A stretch of 63,552 nt of DNA, the filler included, from Folioceros fuciformis (taxonomy: Eukaryota), in the NCBI GenBank assembly GCA_049999805.1. It is 10 parts of 10 records of this genome, joined end to end, with 100 filler letters (N's around TTAATTAATTAA, not from the genome) between each part and the next. Parts side by side here need not be neighbours in the genome. Positions count along the whole stretch, not along the records: positions 45,410 to 56,928 come from JBNGIO010004442.1; 9 more parts are not named here. One strand, given 5' to 3'. The notes beneath the pieces were generated by a model. It was not told the origin of the DNA. It did no database searches and saw only the letters and a list, made by a program, of their open reading frames with translations. Each line of letters begins with the position of its first letter. The first letter of the stretch is position 1. The position numbers were made by a program, and so were the translations under genes. Positions 30,970-56,830 of the stretch are shown in pieces.

Positions 30970-33678
30970 GTGTCCGGCGTGAATAGTTGGCCAGTGCCAG
31001 CCACTCTGTTGCTCTCGGGTGTTGAAAGTTGCAGCCTTGATCCTGGTTTTCAAGTGTGCAGGGGGGCGAGGAGGGAGGGTTCTCCGAGTGCTGGTTCATG
31101 TGGGGAAGGAGTGGCTGACGAACTTGGGGCCGTAGAAGTGAAAGTTCAAGATGGGGCTCCTGTGCCCACCAAGGTTTTCTACCGCATTTTGTGCAGGTGC
31201 ATTTCACATAGTGATCTTGCAACAGGCAGGAAGGTGGACTCACTCATCAGCAAAGGCGGGCTCGCAGGCAACGCTTTTCTGGCAAGCCACCTGATACGGA
31301 TGTATGCTTGTCTGGGGAGTTTGCAAGATGCCCATGATGTATTCAACAGATTGCCTGCACAAGATGAGATGTCGTGGGCAGCTATCATCTCGGCGTGTTG
31401 GAAGCAGGGCCAAGCTAAGCAGGCCATAGCTCTGTACCACCAAATGCGGCAGACAACGGTGAAGCCGGACAAGAGCATCTTTGTGGCTGTGCTCAAAGCT
31501 TGTGCGAGTTGTGCATCTCTAGTACAAGGGAAGCTGATCCATGGCCACGTCATGGAAAGCCCTTATCTGATGGATGCTAGTGTTAGCAGTGCAATTGTGG
31601 ACATGTACGCAAAATGCGGGAGCTTGGTGGATGCTCGTCCGGTGTTTGATGGGCTGACTACAGCGGACCTGATCACATGGACAGGAATGATCTCAGCATA
31701 TTCCCAGTTTGGCGATGTCCAGGATGCTTTCGAGCTCTTCTGGCAGATGGTGAGTGCCGGCCTGCATCCTGACACGGTCGCACTCATAACTGTCCTGAGA
31801 GCTTGTTCCAGATACGCAGCCCTTGATCAAGGCAGGGTGATACATGCCTACATTGCGAGCCGTGATTCTGCTGCCGACAGGTTTCTTGGCAGCGCGCTCA
31901 TGGACATGTATGTAAAGTGTGGGAGTCAGGAGGATGCCCGTAGAGTGTTTGACAGCCTGCCAGATGCAGATCTTGTGTCTTGGAACAACATCATCACTGC
32001 GTATTCACAAAGTGAGAGTGCTCAGGACATGCTGCAGGCTCTCTTGCAAATGCAGGAGGTCAGTGTGCAACCTGATCGTGTCACTTACTTAATCGTCCTG
32101 AAAGGATGTTCCACCTTGGCAGCATTGGAGCTGGGCAGGTTGATTCAGGCCCACATACAGGAGAGAGGGCTGGAGTCAGATTTATCTGTTGCAAATACTC
32201 TTATTAGCATGTTTGTTAAGTGCAACAGCTTCGAGGATGCCAGAGGAGTATTTGACAGGATGGTTGTCAAAGACTCGGTAACCTGGACTGGGATGATCAT
32301 GGGATATGCACAATCTGGTGATCGTCAAGTGGCTCTTGAACTCATTCAGCAGATGCAACGAGAAGACGTCCAGTTCGAAAAGGCGTCATTGCTGAGCATC
32401 CTGAAGGTGTGTTCCAATACCCTATCACTGGCCGAGGGAAGGTTGATTCACGCTTGCACCACAAAGAGTGGGCTAGAGTTGGATATATCCATCGGCAACT
32501 CCCTTATCAACATGTATTCAAAATGCGGGAGCTCTGCCGACGCGCGGGGGTTGTTTGAGAGATTGCCAGCAAGAAGTGTTGTCTCATACAATGCCATGAT
32601 CGCAGCATACTGTTTGGATGGAGACAGCGAGGAAGCCTTTCAACTTTTCCGACGGATGCAAAGGGATGGCGTTCAGGCGAGCAAGGTCACAGTTCTGACC
32701 CTGCTGAAAGCGTGCTCCAAAGTGGGAGCACTTCACCATGGCAAGGCCCTCCTTCGGTACATTTCGGAAAGCGGTATGAAGTCAGATGCAGAGGTCTTGT
32801 GTGCTGTCATCGACATGTATGCCAAGTGCGGGAGCTTGGAGGATGCCCGTGCAGTGTTTGACAGAGCAGACACGAGAGACTTGGTGATGTGGACTGCTAT
32901 GATTTCAGGATATGCTCAGCACGGTGCTGCTCATGTGGCTTTGCAGCTCTTTCAGCAAATGCAACAGGAGGGCGTTCAACCCAACAGTGTGACGTTCCTC
33001 TGCCTGCTGAATGCCTGTAGCCACGCTGGGTTGTGGGAGACGGGCTTCCAAGTGTTCCGTTCCATGTCTCAAGAATTTGGTCTTACCCCTGAACTGGAGC
33101 ACTACGCTTGCATGGTCGATCTTCTCGGTCGACTGGGGTATCTCGATGAGGCGGAGGATTTCATCCACAGCCTTCCAGAACAGGGTGACCTGGTGTTGTG
33201 GATGTCTCTGTTGGGGGCTTGTCGAACGCATGTGAATGTAGACACAGGGTGGCGATCATTTGAAGAAATTTTGAAGCTGGATATGCAGAACGCCGCTGCA
33301 TATCGTCTCATGGCGGATGTCTATGCATTGGCTGGCATGCAGAGACGTTCCATCGACCTGAGCAGGATGATGATGGGTGCTGGGGCCAAGAAGGAACCTG
33401 GCCGCACGTGGATGGAGTCTGGCAATGAGGTGCATACGTTTGCGGTAGAAGACGCACGTCATCGTGAAAGAGGAGAGATTTATCTTGAGCTGGAAAAGCT
33501 TGTGGGGTCGGTGAGGCAGCTGCCCTTTGGTGACCCGTCTTTGGGCCCGGAACATCCGCAGTGTAACCTGACAAATATCACGAACGCGAGTCAGAACTGT
33601 TGCCTGCTGGTGTCAGAAGTGTGGCCAGTAGGACAGTCCACTGTTCTCTCTGATGACGATCTGCCAGGCAAGCAATAA
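30970..33678 (+). CDS. PLS-class PPR protein with E1/E2 and PG box but no catalytic DYW (E+ type); true start unresolved
   Basis: About 20 P/L/S motifs, then LEHYACMVDLLGRLG, E domains, KKEPGRTWMESGNEVHTF..EIYLELEKL. No HxE or CxxC follows. Confidence 0.92.
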   Translation: MSGVNSWPVPATLLLSGVESCSLDPGFQVCRGARREGSPSAGSCGEGVADELGAVEVKVQDGAPVPTKVFYRILCRCISHSDLATGRKVDSLISKGGLAGNAFLASHLIRMYACLGSLQDAHDVFNRLPAQDEMSWAAIISACWKQGQAKQAIALYHQMRQTTVKPDKSIFVAVLKACASCASLVQGKLIHGHVMESPYLMDASVSSAIVDMYAKCGSLVDARPVFDGLTTADLITWTGMISAYSQFGDVQDAFELFWQMVSAGLHPDTVALITVLRACSRYAALDQGRVIHAYIASRDSAADRFLGSALMDMYVKCGSQEDARRVFDSLPDADLVSWNNIITAYSQSESAQDMLQALLQMQEVSVQPDRVTYLIVLKGCSTLAALELGRLIQAHIQERGLESDLSVANTLISMFVKCNSFEDARGVFDRMVVKDSVTWTGMIMGYAQSGDRQVALELIQQMQREDVQFEKASLLSILKVCSNTLSLAEGRLIHACTTKSGLELDISIGNSLINMYSKCGSSADARGLFERLPARSVVSYNAMIAAYCLDGDSEEAFQLFRRMQRDGVQASKVTVLTLLKACSKVGALHHGKALLRYISESGMKSDAEVLCAVIDMYAKCGSLEDARAVFDRADTRDLVMWTAMISGYAQHGAAHVALQLFQQMQQEGVQPNSVTFLCLLNACSHAGLWETGFQVFRSMSQEFGLTPELEHYACMVDLLGRLGYLDEAEDFIHSLPEQGDLVLWMSLLGACRTHVNVDTGWRSFEEILKLDMQNAAAYRLMADVYALAGMQRRSIDLSRMMMGAGAKKEPGRTWMESGNEVHTFAVEDARHRERGEIYLELEKLVGSVRQLPFGDPSLGPEHPQCNLTNITNASQNCCLLVSEVWPVGQSTVLSDDDLPGKQ

Positions 33679-44094: not shown

Positions 44095-45309
44095 TCACGG
44101 TCGACCTTTACAACTGCAACAACCAGCTGCAAATCGATGCACACGATACCCATCCCTTACCACAATGTCTCTACGTTCGAGCCATGACAAGATCTCCGTC
44201 GATTTGTGGCAGTCGCTGCACATGCGTAGATTCTTGGTTACCACCAGAGGCGTCCCACTCGGAGTGTTCAAGAGACCAAACGCAACAGCTAGCTTCTCAG
44301 CATGGCCACAAAGCGCATCTTCCTTTTCCTTCTCAGACAGTGGCTTCAGCACCAATTTTGTGAGAGGTACGTGGCCACCCTCCTGTTTCACACGTGCATT
44401 GGTGGCCTCCACCTCAAGCGCAAGATCTTGTCTCCTTTCCCCCACTAGAAATCTATGTACTTGCTTATTCACCTCGATGCTCGCCACAGCAGGTTTCTTG
44501 TTAGCTCCTGCTAGCCTTCTCTGTGCCTCAATCCTGTCTACATCCGTCCACCTACCTGCATCTGCATAGACATTCGCCATGAGCACATACGCAGTCGCAT
44601 CCTGGGGGTCCAGTGTAACAATGCGTTCAAAACACCAAATCGCCCTGCCTACATCACCGTGACTTTTGCACGCATTCAACAAAGATCTCAACCCCACAGC
44701 ATTCCTTTGGCCCTCACATGACGAAAGCATCTTCTCAGCCTCATCTAAATGGCCAGCACGCCCAAGAAGATCAATCATGCAGGTGTAATGTTCGACTGTA
44801 GGTTTGATGCCATGCTTTTCGGCCATGGAATCGAAATGCTTGCGGCCCTCGTGCACAAGTCCTTCATGACTGCAGGCTGCTAGAAGGCAAGTAAAAGTAG
44901 CAGCATCAGGCCGAATACCAGCCGCTAACATCTCCTCAAAACAAGCTAGCGCTTTCTGACCATCATCACAAGTACCATACCCAGCTATTAGGGCATTCCA
45001 TGTCACCACATCCTTCGCGACCAAGCTTTCAAAAACTCGGCGAGCCTCTTTCAGTGCACCACATTTTGCATACATGTCCAGCAAGCAGGTGCCCACCAGT
45101 GTGTCATCCAGCAGTCCTTTTTCAACAATTTGAGAGTGCAGCTGCCTGCCCTTCTGTAAGGCACCAGTGCTTCCGCATGCCTTCAGAAGGAAAGCGAAAG
45201 TAACGTAGTTTGCTACCATCAGACCCTCCTGCTGCATCTGTTCATACAAAACAAGCGCCTCGTGGCCGAGTCCTTGCTGTGCATACCCAGCAATCAGCGC
45301 CGTCCATGT
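44095..45309 (-). CDS. PLS-PPR protein with DYW:KP (GRP-ending) domain, putative U-to-C editing factor; 5' truncated by scaffold end
   Basis: P2-L2-S2-E1-E2, NKKPAVASIEV, CGHAEKLA, NLRMCSDCH, RDGYRVHRFAAGCCSCKGRP*. Confidence 0.93.
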   Translation of the reverse strand, partial: TWTALIAGYAQQGLGHEALVLYEQMQQEGLMVANYVTFAFLLKACGSTGALQKGRQLHSQIVEKGLLDDTLVGTCLLDMYAKCGALKEARRVFESLVAKDVVTWNALIAGYGTCDDGQKALACFEEMLAAGIRPDAATFTCLLAACSHEGLVHEGRKHFDSMAEKHGIKPTVEHYTCMIDLLGRAGHLDEAEKMLSSCEGQRNAVGLRSLLNACKSHGDVGRAIWCFERIVTLDPQDATAYVLMANVYADAGRWTDVDRIEAQRRLAGANKKPAVASIEVNKQVHRFLVGERRQDLALEVEATNARVKQEGGHVPLTKLVLKPLSEKEKEDALCGHAEKLAVAFGLLNTPSGTPLVVTKNLRMCSDCHKSTEILSWLERRDIVVRDGYRVHRFAAGCCSCKGRP

Positions 45310-45704
45310 NNNNNNNNNNNNNNNNNNNNNNNNNNNNNNNNNNNNNNNNNNNNTTAATTAATTAANNNNNNNNNNNNNNNNNNNNNNNNNNNNNNNNNNN
45401 NNNNNNNNNTCCAGTTCCAGTTCGCAAAGGACCAACACCAAGTACATATGTACAGCGTGTACGTACGTACTACGTACCAAGTCCCGAGACAGGAGACTCA
45501 ATCCAAATCGACTCTAATAGACGTCTTCTACACAGCCACCCACCTGCATTTAAGCAAACTGGACTGCATATCGCAGAGTGCTCGGGATTCGCGTCTCTCC
45601 ACCGCTAACAAGGAATCGTGTGCTAGTGGGACTCACTCGCCGATAATATGTATATGTTTTGTATGGGTTGATCAAATCGATCCTACGATCCAGTAGCTCG
45701 GGCG

Positions 45705-48476
<2,772 letters not shown>

Positions 48477-50440: not shown

Positions 50441-51246
50441 ATTGTTGCTCCTTTATTATTAGATTAGATGAAGTGTCCCATGTATTTTTAATAAAAATAT
50501 ATAATAACAATACAAATTTAATTACAACCATGATGCAAAAATGGGGATGAGATACTCCTATGGNNNNNNNNNNNNNNNNNNNNNNNNNNNNNNNNNNNNN
50601 NNNNNNNNNNNNNNNNNNNNNNNNNNNNNNNNNNNNNNNNNNNNNNNNNNNNNNNNNNNNNNNCTCCTATGGAGGCTGACACGATGATGAGTTTGAAAAT
50701 ATGTTAAAATATAAAATTTATATCTTTATAATGATTAAATAAATAAAAAGACAAAAAATCGGACGTCCCTGGGTCAATAAAGTGGTGCGCAGTGAAAGAG
50801 ACCCATGGTTCGGCCTACTACGTAGGACAACGAGTTGATTCGTTAACAGATAAACGTCACGACCGCAACATTGTTTACCAAGGAGGTTGACATAAGGTGA
50901 TCAAGCAGTGCCCGTTTGTGAACACTGCAAACGAAGTACCCAGAAATGTGAACGAGAAGTTCATGTCATACATACGTCCGAAAAATCCCCTACCTCACTA
51001 GTATGCTACCTCATAGCTTTGCCAAGGATGTATTAAGCAGGAGAACACTTCTCTTAAAAGTCCACTAAGGTAATCACGCAGTACACCCTCATGAATACTG
51101 CAAAGGAACTTGGTCACGAGTACTGGTGGAGTGAACTTCAGTCATACGTGTGGAACATACCCTCAACTCAATAGTGTCAACTCGTGGGAAAATTGGTTGC
51201 CGTCACTGTGTCCTGTAACGTGTCGCATCGTCAGTTTCTTTCGTTC

Positions 51247-54129
51247 TCACGGTCGACCTTTGCAACTGCAAGAACCAGCTGCGAATCGATGCACGCGGTA
51301 TCCATCTCTTACAACAATCTCTCTCTTTTCAACCCTTGACAGGATCTCGGTGGAGCTGTGGCAGTCACTGCACATGCGCAAATTTTTTGTAACCAGCAGA
51401 GGTGTGCCGCTCGGAGTGTTCAAGAGACCAAACGCCAGAGCTAGCTTCTCAGCATGCCCACAAAGCACATCGTTCTTTTCCTTCTCAGACAGTGGCTTCA
51501 ACACCAGCTTTGTTTGTGGTAAGTGGCCCCCTTCCTCCTTCAGTCGAACATTCAAGTTCTCTAAGTTGCGCGAAATATCATCTCTGTTTTCTCCTACCAC
51601 AAACGTATGTACTTGCTCCATTATCTCTATGCCCGCCACTGCAGGTTTCTTGTTTGCTCCTGCTACCATACGGTGTGCTTCAATCCTCTCTACATCTGCC
51701 CACCTGCCCGCATCTGCATAGACATTTGCCATGAGCACATACGCAGATGCCCGCTGAGGGTCCACTTTGACAAGCCTTTCAAAAGACCGTTTTGCCCTCT
51801 CTACATCCCCGTGACTTCTGCAAGCATTTAGCAAAGATGTCAACCCCACAACATCATTCTGGCTCTCGCAGGATAATAGCATGTTCTCTGCCTCGTCTAA
51901 ATGGCCTGCTCGTCCAAGGAGGTCCACCATGCAAGCGTGATGCTCAATAGTAGGTATGATGCCGTGCTGTTCAACCATGGCATCAAAGAGCTGGAGACCC
52001 TCATTAACCAGTCCCTCATGACTGCATGCTACTAGAAGGCAAGTAAAAGTGGTATCATCAGGGCGGACACCCGTGAGAAACATCTCCTCAAGAGAAGCTA
52101 GTGCCTTGTGACCACCACCACACGTACCATACGCAGCTATGAGGGCATTCCATGTCACTACATCCTTTGTAGCGAGACAGTCAAAGACCCGACGCGCATC
52201 TTGTAGTTCACCACATTTTCCATACATGTCCACCAGGGAACTGCCAACAACCAGGTTGTTGAGCAGTCCTCGTTCCACAATCTGTGAATGCAGCTGCCTG
52301 CCCTTCTGTAATGCACCCGCACTTGCACAGGCCTTCAGGAGGCAAGAAAAAGTAACAGAGTCCCCCAGGATCAGGCCCTCCTGCTCCATTTTCGTGTACA
52401 GAACAAGCGCCTCTTGACAGAGACCTTGCTGTGTATACCCAGCAAGCAGGGCCGTCCATGTCACCACATTCTTTATGGACAAGCTGTCAAAAACCCTGCG
52501 TGCATCTTCCAGTTCTCCACATTTGGCATACATGTCCACCAGGCAGTTGCCCACCAGTATGTCACTATGTAGCATTCCATTTTCAGCGATCTGTGAGTGC
52601 AGCTTCCTGCCCTTTTGTAAGGCACCAGTGCTGGCACAAGCTTTCAGAAGACAGGTAAAAGTAACATGATTAGCAAAAATTAGGCCCTCCTCCTCCAGGT
52701 GTCCAAAAAGAAGAAGCGCATCTTGACAAAGCCCTTGCTGTACATAACCAGCTATAAGGGCAGTGCACGACACCACATCCTTCGTGGCTAAGCTGTCAAA
52801 AACCCTGCGTGCTTCTCCCAGCTCACCGCATTTCGCATACATGTCCACAAGGCAGTTCCCCACCAGTGTATCACTTTGTAGCTGTCCTCTTTCCATAATC
52901 TGTGAGTGCAGCTGCTTGCCCTCTTGCAAGGCGCCAGCGGCTGCACAGGCCTTCAGGAGGCAGGCAAAAGTAACACGGTCGGCGAGAGTCAGGCCATCTT
53001 GCTCCATCTGTTCATACAGAGAAAGCGCCTCCCGAAAAAGCCCAAGATTTGCATAACCACCGATCAGGGAGTTCCATGTCACAACATTTTTGGCAACCAG
53101 GCTGTCAAAGACCCGGCGCGCCTCTACCAGTTCCCCACATTTGGCATACATATCCACCAGGCAGCTACCAACAAAAAAATTAGGAGGGATCCCACTGTTC
53201 AGCACATCGGTGTGCACTTTTCTGCCTGATTCCAAGTCTGCACCAAATGCACAAGCTTGGAGGGCAGCTACAAAGACGTGAGCATCCGCCTTCCCACCCA
53301 AGCTACGCATCTCATGGTAGAGTTGTATGGCCTCATGAGGCTTCCCATGTTTAGCATGGGCGGAGATTATGGAGAACCACATGAAGGCATTCGGTTCGCC
53401 CACCCTGGTGAACACATCCATGGCCTCTTGTAACATTCCCCCGAGTGCGTACATGCGCAAGATATGATTCCCCAAGTATGTATCAGACTCGTACCCAAGT
53501 TTGACAGCGAGATCATGGACTTGTCGACCCGTAGCCAGATCTTTCCTAGCTGCGCAGGTTTTCAGCACAATATACAACAGAGACTGAGGGATAGGACAAC
53601 GTGCCTGCGCCAAAAATTCCAGAGCCCCAACGGCCTCAGGAAGCTTCCCTTGCTGGCATAAACTCCGCACGGTCACAGCGGTTGCGCCCAATTCCCATCT
53701 TCCATGCCTACCAGGATCAGACTTCTCCGGCAAGCTCGACGTGGAAACAGAGGCAGCTCGCATCAGCTGCATATCCAAAGCATCCAGTTGCTCGTCCACC
53801 CAAGCTGGCTTGGAGAAGTCTTGCAACCAGAGGACCTCGCCAGATCCCTTACGCCGAAAGTCGGGCGAATGGGCGCTCTTCTTGTCGCGCCTGTTATCCC
53901 ACCACATGGAAGGGTCGAGAAAAAATTGTCGCCACAAGAGCTCCTGCTTCCGTCCACCACCATCGCTGACAAATCCGTCCCTAGCCGCAGATTTCGGCGG
54001 AAGTGCTGGCCTCCTTACAGTGGTACCTACAGCGGCCAGGTGAGCCGAGGATGACCTGCTGCGGCTGCACCATCCCAACCGGCGCGCCAACAAGCCGACA
54101 CGCATCCGATTCTTCGATCCATTTGCCAT
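51247..54129 (-). CDS. Intronless organelle-targeted PDF-motif + PLS-PPR + E1/E2 + DYW:KP (GRP) protein
   Basis: ATG at 54129 or 54105 with an R/S-rich leader. LWRQFFLDPSMWWDNRRDKKSAHSPDFRRKGSGEVLWL..PAWV, about 17 PLS motifs, NKKPAVAGIEI, CGHAEKLA, NLRMCSDCH, FAAGSCSCKGRP*. Confidence 0.95.
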   Translation of the reverse strand: MANGSKNRMRVGLLARRLGWCSRSRSSSAHLAAVGTTVRRPALPPKSAARDGFVSDGGGRKQELLWRQFFLDPSMWWDNRRDKKSAHSPDFRRKGSGEVLWLQDFSKPAWVDEQLDALDMQLMRAASVSTSSLPEKSDPGRHGRWELGATAVTVRSLCQQGKLPEAVGALEFLAQARCPIPQSLLYIVLKTCAARKDLATGRQVHDLAVKLGYESDTYLGNHILRMYALGGMLQEAMDVFTRVGEPNAFMWFSIISAHAKHGKPHEAIQLYHEMRSLGGKADAHVFVAALQACAFGADLESGRKVHTDVLNSGIPPNFFVGSCLVDMYAKCGELVEARRVFDSLVAKNVVTWNSLIGGYANLGLFREALSLYEQMEQDGLTLADRVTFACLLKACAAAGALQEGKQLHSQIMERGQLQSDTLVGNCLVDMYAKCGELGEARRVFDSLATKDVVSCTALIAGYVQQGLCQDALLLFGHLEEEGLIFANHVTFTCLLKACASTGALQKGRKLHSQIAENGMLHSDILVGNCLVDMYAKCGELEDARRVFDSLSIKNVVTWTALLAGYTQQGLCQEALVLYTKMEQEGLILGDSVTFSCLLKACASAGALQKGRQLHSQIVERGLLNNLVVGSSLVDMYGKCGELQDARRVFDCLATKDVVTWNALIAAYGTCGGGHKALASLEEMFLTGVRPDDTTFTCLLVACSHEGLVNEGLQLFDAMVEQHGIIPTIEHHACMVDLLGRAGHLDEAENMLLSCESQNDVVGLTSLLNACRSHGDVERAKRSFERLVKVDPQRASAYVLMANVYADAGRWADVERIEAHRMVAGANKKPAVAGIEIMEQVHTFVVGENRDDISRNLENLNVRLKEEGGHLPQTKLVLKPLSEKEKNDVLCGHAEKLALAFGLLNTPSGTPLLVTKNLRMCSDCHSSTEILSRVEKREIVVRDGYRVHRFAAGSCSCKGRP

Positions 54130-54799
54130 ACACAGCTTGCTTGGCACCGGGTAGCAAGGTTGGTGAAGGATAGCATGCCTTTCATCTCACACAATTTCCA
54201 GCAGCCGGCTGCCTGTGCAACAACGGCGTCCACATTTGGCCGTCTTCCAGCGATTGCGCTGGTGAACCATTCCTGCAACTCGAGATCCCGCTTCCGCTTC
54301 GCCGCTGTACCCCGCTACAGGATTTCACGACGCCCGTGAGACGTATCTCCCCCTCTCGGGTGAAGGGCCGGATGGCTTGCTTTGCGGTTGCCGCCTTCTT
54401 GTGCGTGGCAAACCTTCCAATGCCCGGGACGGCAGGGAGGAGGAGGGCAACTCCAGCGCACCGAAGCCCTGCGGCCATTGCATCACGACCAGATTCGTCA
54501 AAGCAATTACGGCGAGCTTTTCGTTCCACGACTTGTCGGCATGCATGTGCCATAAAGAACATCCATGTTGTGTTACGTTTGATGCATTGCTTCGTTAACG
54601 GCCTTGGGATCATCTCACAACAAGGTTCTCGATTTCTTCTTCGTCTTCCTCACGAAGGCTGTGGAGGGAGAGTTGCATCCCATCCGCCATAAACCATCGC
54701 TAACTTCTCGTTCTGAGAAAAGCCTGCCAGTGGCGGTAAAGAGTGGATGCGTGCCGTACATCCTCCCTTCTTCACGGTGTGAAAGGCTTGGTGTAGCAA

Positions 54800-56830
54800 A
54801 TGAGGATGATGATGCTTCTCATCAACGAAGGAACTATGCACCAGTCCGTCTGTTTGTCCACCAGCTCTGACCATCTGTTTCCATGCCTTGATTCTTTTCC
54901 TCGTTGAGTCCAAGTGGTCTGCCTCTTCCCACATCTGGGCCCCGGTATGAATGTTGGATTGAGCATCAACAAATCTGCTGCGGCATCTTCCTGCGCTACT
55001 TCACTGCTTCACTCCCTCCACGTTACGCCACTTTTCACAGGCAGCCAAGAGGGTCTGCCACACCGCTGCATTAGGCACAAGGGGCATTGATCTTACCAAA
55101 GCTAGGGCCTCATCCAGTTGTCCTTTACGACCCAGAAGAACCACCATGCACGTGTAGTGGTCCCATGTGGGAGTTATGGAGTGATCATTACTCGTAGCCT
55201 CGAAGTAGTCCCACACATCCTTCACAAGGCCCGCATGACTGCCTGCTGTAGTACACTGAGGAACGTGATGCTGTTGGGCTGTATGCCATCTTCCCTCATT
55301 CTCCGGAACAAGTCGAAGACGACATCACTCTGTCCTTGGGAGCTGTAGCGTGCAATCAGCGCACTCCAGGCGACAACGTTTGGGAGTAACAAGGCGTCAA
55401 GCACTTGTTGCGCATTAACCATGCTGCCGCACTTGCAGTACATGTGAATCAAACTGCCAGCTGCAAATGAATCCGCTTCAAAGTCTTGTTCCACGATCTG
55501 CACATGCAGCTGTCTTCCCAAATGCAAAGCGGCCACATCTGCACATGCCTGAAGGAGGGCTACGAATGTGACGGAATCGGGTACGGCCATGCCTTCTAGT
55601 TGCATTGCGCTGTAAAGACGAAGGGCGTCCAGGCCAATGTCCTGCTGGGAATATCCTGTTATCATGGCAGTACAGGTCACAACATTTTTGTGACCAAGTC
55701 CGTCAAACACTCTGTGAGCGTCTTCCAGGTTCCCGCACTTGGCGTACATGTTCACCAAACTGCTGGCTACAAACACATCAGCTTCGTATCCTTCTTGTCT
55801 GGTGTGTGCGTGCAGCTGTTTGCCCTTTCCCATGCCGGGGTGCCGACACTTGCACAGGCCTACAGGAGACAGACGAATGTCACGGAATCGAGCACAGCGA
55901 TGTTTTCCTCTTGCATGACACTGTACAGGCGCAAGGCTACCTCCCTCATGCCTTGCTGAGAATATCCTCCGATCATGGCAGTCCACATTACACCGTTTTT
56001 ACAATCAAGTTCATCAAACACTCTCTGAGCATCAACCAAGCTGCCGCACTTGGCATAAATATTCACCACACTGTTGGCCACAAACACATCAGCATAACTG
56101 TGATACAGTCGGGTGCAACGGTGCCATCAGCTTGCATAACCCGATAGACTAAGGGCTTCCCGCCCCTTGCCCTGCTGGGAGTAGCCTGCAAGCATGGCGT
56201 TCCACGTCATTACATCTTTCTGCCCGAGTCCTGCAAACACCCTCCGAGCATCTTGTAAGCTACCACACTTGGCGTACATGTCCACCAAGCAATTACATAC
56301 GAACAAATCAGGATGGAGTCCAGTAGCCAACAGATGGGCGTGCACCTGCAAAGATTACAAGTCTGCGGTCCTTTCACAAGCCTGAAGCGCTGCCACAAAC
56401 ACAAACACATGTCCATCTGGCTTCACACTGCTACCGGACCTGCGCATCCCATGATACAGCTGGATAGCCTGAGCGTCCCGACCGAATTTCACATGCGCAG
56501 GAATACTGGCAGACCAGGTGAAGGCGTACGGCTTAGCAACCCCTTCAAGCACATCCATGGCATCTTGCAACCTGCCATGAGAAGAATACCTCCGCAGGAC
56601 ATGGTTGCCCACGAAAGTATCTGACTCGTATCCCATTCTCACCGTCAAAACGTGCATTCGGCGACCCAGAACAAGATCCCGCTTGGCCACACATCCCTTC
56701 ACACAGATTCGGTAACAGTATGAGCAAGAGTCCGGTCCTCGTGCACCAAAAGTTCCAAAGCCTCAACAGCCTCAGCCGCACGGTCCTGCCCACATAGCTT
56801 GCTCAGGGTTTCAGTCGTCACTCGACTATT
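54800..56830 (-). pseudogene. PLS-PPR pseudogene with E domain and WW-type box remnant
   Basis: Colinear PLS fragments in several frames with stops. WDHYTCMVVLLGRKG, AAVWQTLLAAC, then frameshifted GQSWWT..DGLVHS at ~54830-54875. Confidence 0.85.

Follow-up and report, generated by a model that had tools for sequence, protein, structure and literature searches.

We analysed a 63,552-nucleotide stretch of DNA from Folioceros fuciformis (GenBank assembly GCA_049999805.1), referred to below as the window, in which ten parts of ten records of this genome are joined end to end. The gene studied here occupies positions 51247..54129 on the minus strand and is an intact, intronless nuclear gene that encodes a PLS-class pentatricopeptide repeat (PPR) protein (P0001) that has both an E motif and a DYW:KP domain of GRP type. 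Its open reading frame runs uninterrupted through 960 codons to a stop codon at 51247-51249, and an in-frame stop at 54187-54189 lies 19 codons upstream of the first ATG. Contigs from a sequencing run, the type of which is only guessed, match positions 50898-56500 in pieces and without differences. An initial annotation of the locus had proposed that a PDF motif, of the kind found in OSB proteins (organellar proteins of plants that bind single-stranded DNA), is fused to the N-terminus of a DYW:KP PPR protein; the intact 960-residue frame bears out this layout, with both ends of the protein confirmed.

From its N-terminus, the protein comprises a presequence-like leader (aa 1-59; 53953..54129), a single PDF motif (aa 60-119; 53773..53952; RKQELLWRQFFLDPSMWWDNRRDKKSAHSPDFRRKGSGEVLWLQDFSKPAWVDEQLDALD), a linker leading from the PDF module to the first PPR helix (aa 120-150; 53680..53772), a PLS-type PPR array (aa ~151-770; 51820..53679), an E motif (E1/E2; aa 773-835; 51625..51813), and a DYW:KP domain of the GRP subgroup (aa 828-960; 51250..51648), all encoded on the minus strand. 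A Pfam scan recovered PF01535 in 15 PPR stretches (E 7e-78), PF20431 in the E motif across profile positions 1-63 of 63 (E 2.7e-15), and PF14432 (DYW_deaminase) at aa 868-958 (E 9.9e-33); the same scan found no family in aa 1-140.

The C-terminal domain carries the features of the DYW:KP group. As described in the available passages of two studies, these domains have KP(A) in place of PG and HAE in place of HSE, span 132-133 residues without an xHP, and contain Lys88 and Met92 (PMC9478123; PMC11845758). The studied protein has KKPAVAG at aa 827, so that KPA stands at the site of the canonical PG, HAE at aa 892, K915 and M919 at domain positions 88 and 92, CSDCH at aa 920, and GRP as its last three residues. 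The initial annotation had placed KPA, HAE, CSDCH, and GRP at this end of the protein, and all four are there. Tandem PPRs are followed by E1/E2 and by the HxE and CxxC zinc ligands of the DYW domain, as in the PLS class, and the KP(A), HAE, 133-residue length, Lys88, Met92, and terminal GRP are those of the GRP subgroup; by every sequence criterion tested, the protein is thus a member of the PLS-E-DYW:KP (GRP) class. GRP endings had also been attributed to a U-to-C editing class shared by hornworts, ferns, and lycophytes. This attribution was too broad, since GRP denotes one of two hornwort subgroups of DYW:KP in the passages of PMC9478123. Those passages and the corresponding ones of PMC11845758 report U-to-C conversion by designer GRP-type KP proteins in E. 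coli as well as in human cells, for which Lys88 is indispensable; according to the latter, it is not yet known what activity the natural KP proteins have. Given that published work ties this class to U-to-C editing in hornwort organelles, the studied protein is probably a U-to-C editing enzyme.

The leader contains 11 arginine and lysine residues, 18 serine, threonine, or alanine residues, and no glutamate; its first acidic residue is D51. This composition suggests organelle targeting and, because it resembles that of an organelle presequence, the PDF motif should lie in the mature protein. Besides the first ATG, there are four ATG codons ahead of the PPR array (codons 9, 75, 120, and 123), with codon 75 falling inside the PDF motif.

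To identify relatives of the N-terminal motif, phmmer was run with aa 55-125 as the query on a set of 1.84 billion representative proteins. At E <= 0.001 there were 639 matches, of which 156 reached <= 1e-10 and 15 reached <= 1e-30; the lowest E-values were near 1e-64. The best 150 of the 639 matches are mostly proteins of 200-650 residues whose 1-13 motif copies tend to lie in the C-terminal half. Among the matches are proteins annotated as 'protein OSB1, mitochondrial-like' from Populus nigra (P0033; E 4.3e-24) and 'protein OSB3, chloroplastic/mitochondrial-like' from Chenopodium quinoa (P0005; E 1.0e-49). The Pfam SSB family (PF00436) precedes the motif in seven of eight OSB-sized matches at E <= 0.01, five of them above the curated cut-off. 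The initial annotation had recognized the motif as OSB-type, a claim that a lack of matches to OSB PDF motifs would have undone; the 639 matches and the named OSB1-like and OSB3-like proteins among them support it.

The phmmer matches supplied 368 motif copies, the window's own included, for a profile whose consensus reads ...LWkdlFenPseWWDNRkdKknpkaPDFKHKdtGEaLWLdsksaPeWV...L. The score of this profile for aa 60-119 (nt 53952-53773) is 71.4 bits, with an E-value of 1.2e-23. The string quoted in the initial annotation (LWRQFFLDPSMWWDNRRDKKSAHSPDFRRKGSGEVLWL..PAWV) is present in the open reading frame and its nucleotide interval, 53937-53776, lies inside the profile match; the residue numbers given with it (aa ~71-124) were about six too high, as nt 53937 falls in codon 65. 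Across all six frames the profile found no second PDF match in the window; the runners-up had E-values of 0.3 and 0.5 and negative scores. A 40-sequence alignment has ten invariant columns (W66, P73, W76, D78, R80, K83, P89, F91, L100, and W110), all of which are retained in the studied protein. Judged by these alignments, the N-terminal motif and the PDF motif of OSB proteins are genuinely homologous. Word-index searches that took aa 55-125 as query, covering proteins of similar length and shorter, gave no match, a limit of sensitivity exposed by the full HMMER scan, and a search of the ESM Atlas gave no usable match. The sole sequence match to aa 1-140 in the PDB, Cas12m2, had an E-value of 0.79 and was set aside as chance.

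Comparison with the closest motif-bearing relative showed that the motif is conserved and its surroundings are not. This relative, P0212, has 950 residues, is 60% identical over 94% of the query, ends in GRP, and has the same order of modules. Identity between the two proteins is 63% in the PDF motif (38/60) but 20% in the leader (12/59) and 13% in the linker (4/31); it is 58% in the PPR array (358/620), 65% in the E motif (42/65), and 75% in the DYW domain (94/125). On this pairwise comparison, the PDF motif is well conserved, with a fast-evolving stretch on either side. The contrast of 63% against 13-20% points to purifying selection on the translated sequence.

Structural modeling is consistent with this picture. 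AlphaFold2, run on aa 55-125 with the 40-row alignment, predicted a helix, two short strands, and a helix, with a mean predicted local distance difference test score (pLDDT) of 90 and a predicted template modeling score of 0.75. A 276-residue model (aa 55-330) retained the PDF module and placed a confident PPR helical array (mean pLDDT 92) after the linker; within the linker, blocks 8 and 9 averaged pLDDT values of 61 and 55, and aa 132-137 fell below 50. The PDF motif is hence predicted to form a small, separately folded domain, and a flexible linker of ~20-30 residues, itself unconserved, connects it to the PPR superhelix in the model.

The combination of PDF and PLS-type PPR modules recurs in other plants. 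One to three PDF motifs stand directly N-terminal of a PPR array in 12 of the best 150 of the 639 phmmer matches, a sample enriched for the motif that establishes occurrence rather than prevalence. Pfam PPR repeats were found in eight of ten long matches, with the other two being a kinesin fusion and a protein with no family. The sources of PDF-PPR proteins named in this motif search are Adiantum capillus-veneris, Ceratopteris richardii, Selaginella moellendorffii, Diphasiastrum complanatum, Sphagnum jensenii, Sphagnum compactum, and a Pteridium aquilinum transcriptome, and additional short database entries represent N-terminal fragments of this type. One S. compactum protein (P0145; CAM6033764.1) combines a PDF motif with a PLS array, an E motif, and a canonical DYW domain that has a PG box, HSE, and CGDCH and ends in DYW.

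We also searched the whole studied protein against a collection of 5.8 billion sequences, scored 8000 candidates, and scanned the best 120 relatives with the PDF profile. There were 3363 proteins at E <= 1e-50 among the candidates scored, and 43 of the best 120 of these PPR relatives carry the motif; this sample is likewise enriched, since the motif itself adds words and score, and speaks to occurrence, not prevalence. By source, the motif was detected in 33 of 43 relatives from D. complanatum, all three from the liverwort Calypogeia fissa, both from Ceratodon purpureus, both from Sphagnum, and two of 18 from A. capillus-veneris, one of which scored only 23 bits. It was found in none of seven from Ceratopteris, not in the one from Adiantum nelumboides, in none of 13 from seed plants (four from Cryptomeria, seven eukprot 'Gb_' entries read as Ginkgo, and one each from Typha and Centaurea), and in one of 31 entries without a species name. 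At a threshold of 40 bits, 42 of the 120 relatives have the motif (34 in a single copy, three in two copies, and five in three copies), and the first copy starts at a median residue of 92.5.

The initial annotation had linked this architecture to reverse editing, and the C-termini of the relatives do not sustain that link. At 40 bits, the motif is present in 17 of 35 relatives with an HSE-type DYW domain and 24 of 71 without a recognizable DYW domain, but in only one of 11 with an HAE-type (KP-like) domain; it is absent from all three HCE/HVE relatives. The sole HAE-type carrier is P0212, such that this protein and the studied one are the only HAE-type PDF-PPR examples found among these relatives. 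Three of the 120 end in GRP (P0212, P0230, and P0237), each 60% identical to the studied protein, and only P0212 has the motif. From this survey of protein sequences, the PDF-PLS layout is recurrent and not tied to U-to-C editing, occurring with E-type, C-to-U-type DYW, and DYW:KP C-termini.

Several carriers of the motif have unusual gene models. The D. complanatum protein P0235 (1362 aa) has PDF motifs at 141-197 and 679-735 and probably represents two adjacent PDF-PPR genes merged in one model. Possible gene-model fusions are also seen among seed-plant proteins, in P0044 from Coptis chinensis (1526 aa), with three PDF copies ahead of a kinesin motor, in P0050 from Striga hermonthica (1063 aa), which is named ICR2 and has three copies, and in P0004 from Kingdonia uniflora (1160 aa), which has 13. 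Two metagenome-derived proteins, P0126 (185 aa; ENA) and P0147 (174 aa; JGI), have a good PDF motif at their very C-terminus; their N-terminal part matches no Pfam family and is unlike OSB or PPR proteins, and they are possibly non-plant carriers of the motif.

To examine the age of the fusion, we inferred a FastTree phylogeny from 209 motif rows and 62 columns, of which 75 rows were PPR-linked, and compared it with 500 shuffles of the labels. The PPR-linked rows need nine label changes on this tree compared to a shuffled mean of 61.5, and none of the 500 shuffles was as low; supported branches force at least two changes. The tree has few supported branches over its 62 columns, and many Diphasiastrum rows are near-copies; an earlier tree of 155 rows was unresolved. 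The motif of a Diphasiastrum OSB-type protein with an SSB domain (P0079) groups among OSB motifs, near an angiosperm OSB1-like entry and apart from the PPR-linked motifs of Diphasiastrum, which argues, as a single case, against taxonomy alone being behind the clustering. Held loosely, the motif tree favors one or a few old fusions that preceded the split of bryophytes and vascular plants over repeated recent captures, and we do not claim a single origin. The PDF fusion therefore looks old and general among PLS proteins in seed-free plants, and reverse editors do not seem to have invented it.

Several known systems are close to the studied protein. OSB proteins, such as Arabidopsis OSB1-4 and their orthologues, have an SSB-like OB fold followed by one to five PDF motifs. 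The studied protein shares with them the 60-residue motif and its columns W..(F)..P..WWDNR..K....PDF.HK..G..LW....P.WV..L; unlike them, it has no OB fold or SSB domain detectable by Pfam, and its motif is single, N-terminal, and followed by a PPR array and a deaminase-like domain. By this domain content it is not an OSB protein. With hornwort GRP-type PPR-DYW:KP proteins and the derived KP2 and KP3, it shares the 133-residue domain, KPA, HAE, Lys88, Met92, CxDCH, and GRP, but the designer proteins have no native N-terminus (PMC9478123 and PMC11845758, in part). The available passages of these two articles make no mention of a PDF motif, although the term itself was not searched there.

The seed-free PDF-PPR entries have the same order of leader, one to three PDF motifs, and PLS array as the studied protein. 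Examples are P0145, P0245 and P0269 from C. purpureus, P0282 and P0310 from C. fissa, XP_024517303.1 from Selaginella (P0115), KAI5076972.1 from Adiantum (P0111), and the 33 entries from D. complanatum. In contrast to the studied protein, nearly all of them have a C-to-U-type DYW domain (PG box, HSE, and a DYW end) or end after the E motif. None is annotated with a PDF motif, the names given being 'hypothetical protein', 'unnamed protein product', or 'pentatricopeptide repeat-containing protein'. A more distant parallel is maize PPR4, in which a general nucleic-acid-binding domain likewise lies ahead of a sequence-specific PPR tract; there, however, the domain is an RRM, the repeats are P-type, and the function is trans-splicing (PMC9459714, in part).

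The initial annotation knew of no functional description of this architecture, and our literature searches agree. No paper linking PDF motifs and PPR proteins was found in the full-text literature, a scope that leaves aside subscription papers and supplements (e.g., the tables of PMC13386178 and PMC13393729). Co-mentions of 'PDF motif' and 'PPR' occurred in two articles, one in which the PPR mentions in the available passages concern mitochondrial RNA polymerases (PMC6963530) and another that is by its title a virology review (PMC8402757). No full-text record combined 'PDF domain' with 'pentatricopeptide', motif strings occurred only in an unrelated preprint, and wider literature searches contributed no further case. 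By term search, both 'OSB' and 'PDF' are absent from a 2026 kingdom-wide survey of PPR domain fusions (PMC13386178), the accessible passages of which name RRM, MORF, and zinc-finger fusions. The extra domains listed in the available part of a review of Physcomitrium PPR proteins are RRM, LAGLIDADG, SMR, NYN, CBS, and SAP. A 2026 study of the OSB family, from what is accessible of it, demanded an OB fold and a PDF motif together and would thereby have excluded PDF-PPR proteins. This gap in description likely arose because there is no Pfam model for the PDF motif; domain surveys of PLS proteins lean on Pfam-type libraries, and these contain none. The studied gene is one more member of a PDF-PLS architecture that is recurrent but apparently undescribed.

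On its RNA target, a PPR tract lies with the N-terminal repeats nearer the 5' end, and the deaminase works immediately 3' of this footprint. A module tethered at the N-terminal end of the tract would hence contact nucleic acid 5' of the recognized sequence. We propose, with a probability of roughly 55%, that the PDF motif grips single-stranded nucleic acid without sequence specificity, at a point just 5' of the PPR footprint. This would raise affinity or keep the target unfolded, and the motif would act as an accessory in cis with no part in catalysis. Besides the orientation of PPR tracts, this reading draws on the aromatic and basic character of the invariant residues (W, F, R, and K) and on statements in two reviews that the PDF motif of Arabidopsis OSB1, the only one for which this is reported, is sufficient for binding single-stranded DNA (PMC6963530 and PMC4166229, in part, both citing Zaegel et al., 2006).

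Several observations weigh against this proposal. OSB1 and OSB2 prefer single-stranded DNA over double-stranded DNA or RNA according to the available text of PMC4166229, which disfavors an RNA-binding role. A Foldseek search of the PDF model against the PDB gave no functional clue, as none of the ten matches listed reached E <= 0.001 and all had E-values of 5-10. Ten of the 11 HAE-type relatives among the best 120 are without the motif, and P0315 (HAE-type, ending in DAH) and P0316 (HCE-type) retain only remnants of 6-9 bits, which together indicate that the motif is dispensable in many paralogues. The designer GRP-type KP proteins edit U to C without it (PMC9478123, in part), and the motif is thus not needed for catalysis. 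The moss factor PPR56, which may or may not carry a PDF motif, still functions in E. coli after its N-terminus is cut away (PMC10482289). The enriched sampling of carriers and the limited support on the motif tree count on the same side, as does our literature search, which found no binding, localization, or editing data for any PDF-PPR protein.

Alternatively, as the initial annotation suggested first, the motif may tether the protein to nucleoids by binding single-stranded organellar DNA at transcription bubbles, R-loops, or replication forks, such that editing is co-transcriptional. The sole biochemistry reported for PDF motifs in the available passages of PMC6963530 and PMC4166229, namely a preference for single-stranded DNA over double-stranded DNA and RNA, fits this role, and the flexible linker predicted by the structural model would suit it. 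However, the PPR-linked motifs cluster apart from OSB motifs, and hence their ligand preference may have changed; furthermore, the same lineages have working editing factors that lack it (10 of 11 HAE-type and 18 of 35 HSE-type relatives). On balance, we regard a nucleoid tether as a possible but doubtful explanation.

A role in protein-protein contacts, for instance in oligomerization, in recruitment of a partner such as an editing factor, helicase, or OSB protein, or as an aid to import or stability, would require no contact with nucleic acid. AtOSB2 is reported to be a tetramer in the accessible part of PMC6963530, PDF-PPR proteins have one to three copies of the motif, as in repeat modules used for avidity, and no solved structure connects this fold to nucleic-acid binding. 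Set against this, the invariant tryptophan, phenylalanine, arginine, and lysine residues are typical of stacking and charge contacts with single strands, and the same part of PMC6963530 reports that the OSB1 PDF motif alone binds single-stranded DNA. We consider a pure protein-binding module unlikely.

It is very improbable that the motif lies in an N-terminal extension outside the working protein, with the start codon or the mature end downstream, and persists as a relic of an ancestral fusion. The decayed remnants in P0315 and P0316 and the truncated or frameshifted PPR loci neighboring the gene in the window are compatible with such decay. Nevertheless, the frame is open from the first ATG through the presequence-like leader, which a start at codon 75, 120, or 123 would remove; the motif has also held its identity to P0212 where its flanks have not, and three PDF-PPR sequences from the Pteridium transcriptome assembly indicate that the layout is transcribed at least in a fern. 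Chance resemblance to a PDF motif, for which only the absence of a Pfam PDF model speaks, can be dismissed given the profile E-value of 1.2e-23, the phmmer E-values down to 1e-64, and the match at every invariant column.

A broader extension of the single-strand grip is that the PDF module has been a cis-acting helper of PLS editing factors since early land plants, and that its seed-plant counterpart is the boost to RNA binding provided in trans by MORF/RIP proteins. This idea is speculative and we give it a rather low probability; it stems from the complementary distributions of the two, with PDF-PLS proteins occurring in hornwort-type, liverwort, moss, lycophyte, and fern sequences and in none of the 13 seed-plant relatives, and MORF genes being reported only from seed plants in the available text of PMC13386178. 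If true, loss of the PDF motif and gain of MORF would both belong to a single transition of the editing machinery, and an added PDF module could improve MORF-free designer editors, including those for U-to-C.

Specificity in plant organelle RNA editing is supplied by PLS-class PPR proteins, on which programmable C-to-U and U-to-C editors are also based. If the module is carried by a large fraction of the PLS proteins in bryophytes, lycophytes, and ferns, an extra, unrecognized component belongs to the 'simple, one-protein editosome' of early land plants, heterologous assays that trim the N-terminus may discard a functional domain, and the OSB and PPR families have a module in common that connects organellar DNA maintenance with RNA processing in evolution. 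The value of the studied gene itself is more modest: as one of two HAE-type PDF carriers found, it lends itself to a natural comparison in which the motif is present or absent.

Other PPR loci are present in the window. A second GRP-type DYW:KP paralogue lies at 44095-45357 on the minus strand, and its last 150 residues are very similar to those of the studied gene; its C-terminal string runs KKPAVASIEV ... HAEKLAVAFGLL ... CSDCH ... CKGRP. The 5' side of this paralogue meets a run of N at 45310-45409 with no PPR sequence beyond it, leaving its N-terminus and any PDF motif unreadable. Directly upstream of the studied gene, at 55001-56762 on the minus strand, are fragments of a PLS-type PPR gene over several frames (e.g., 55222-55998, 55860-56126, 56127-56354, and 56355-56762), which look like a frameshifted PPR pseudogene in tandem; the 368-copy profile detected no PDF motif there in six frames. 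On the plus strand, positions 31300-33678 encode a 792-residue PLS-type PPR protein with an E motif and a PG-type box (KKEPGRTW), in which a degenerate tail replaces the DYW active site; the same profile detected no PDF motif at this locus in any frame. Exon-like open reading frames with ABC-transporter ATPase motifs, split over frames at 46535-47258 on the plus strand, suggest an intron-containing gene between the two GRP-type PPR genes. The window as a whole contains 38 runs of N, 2612 N in total, in stereotyped sizes of 100, 44+44, and 10 bases, which look masked as opposed to being assembly gaps of natural size.

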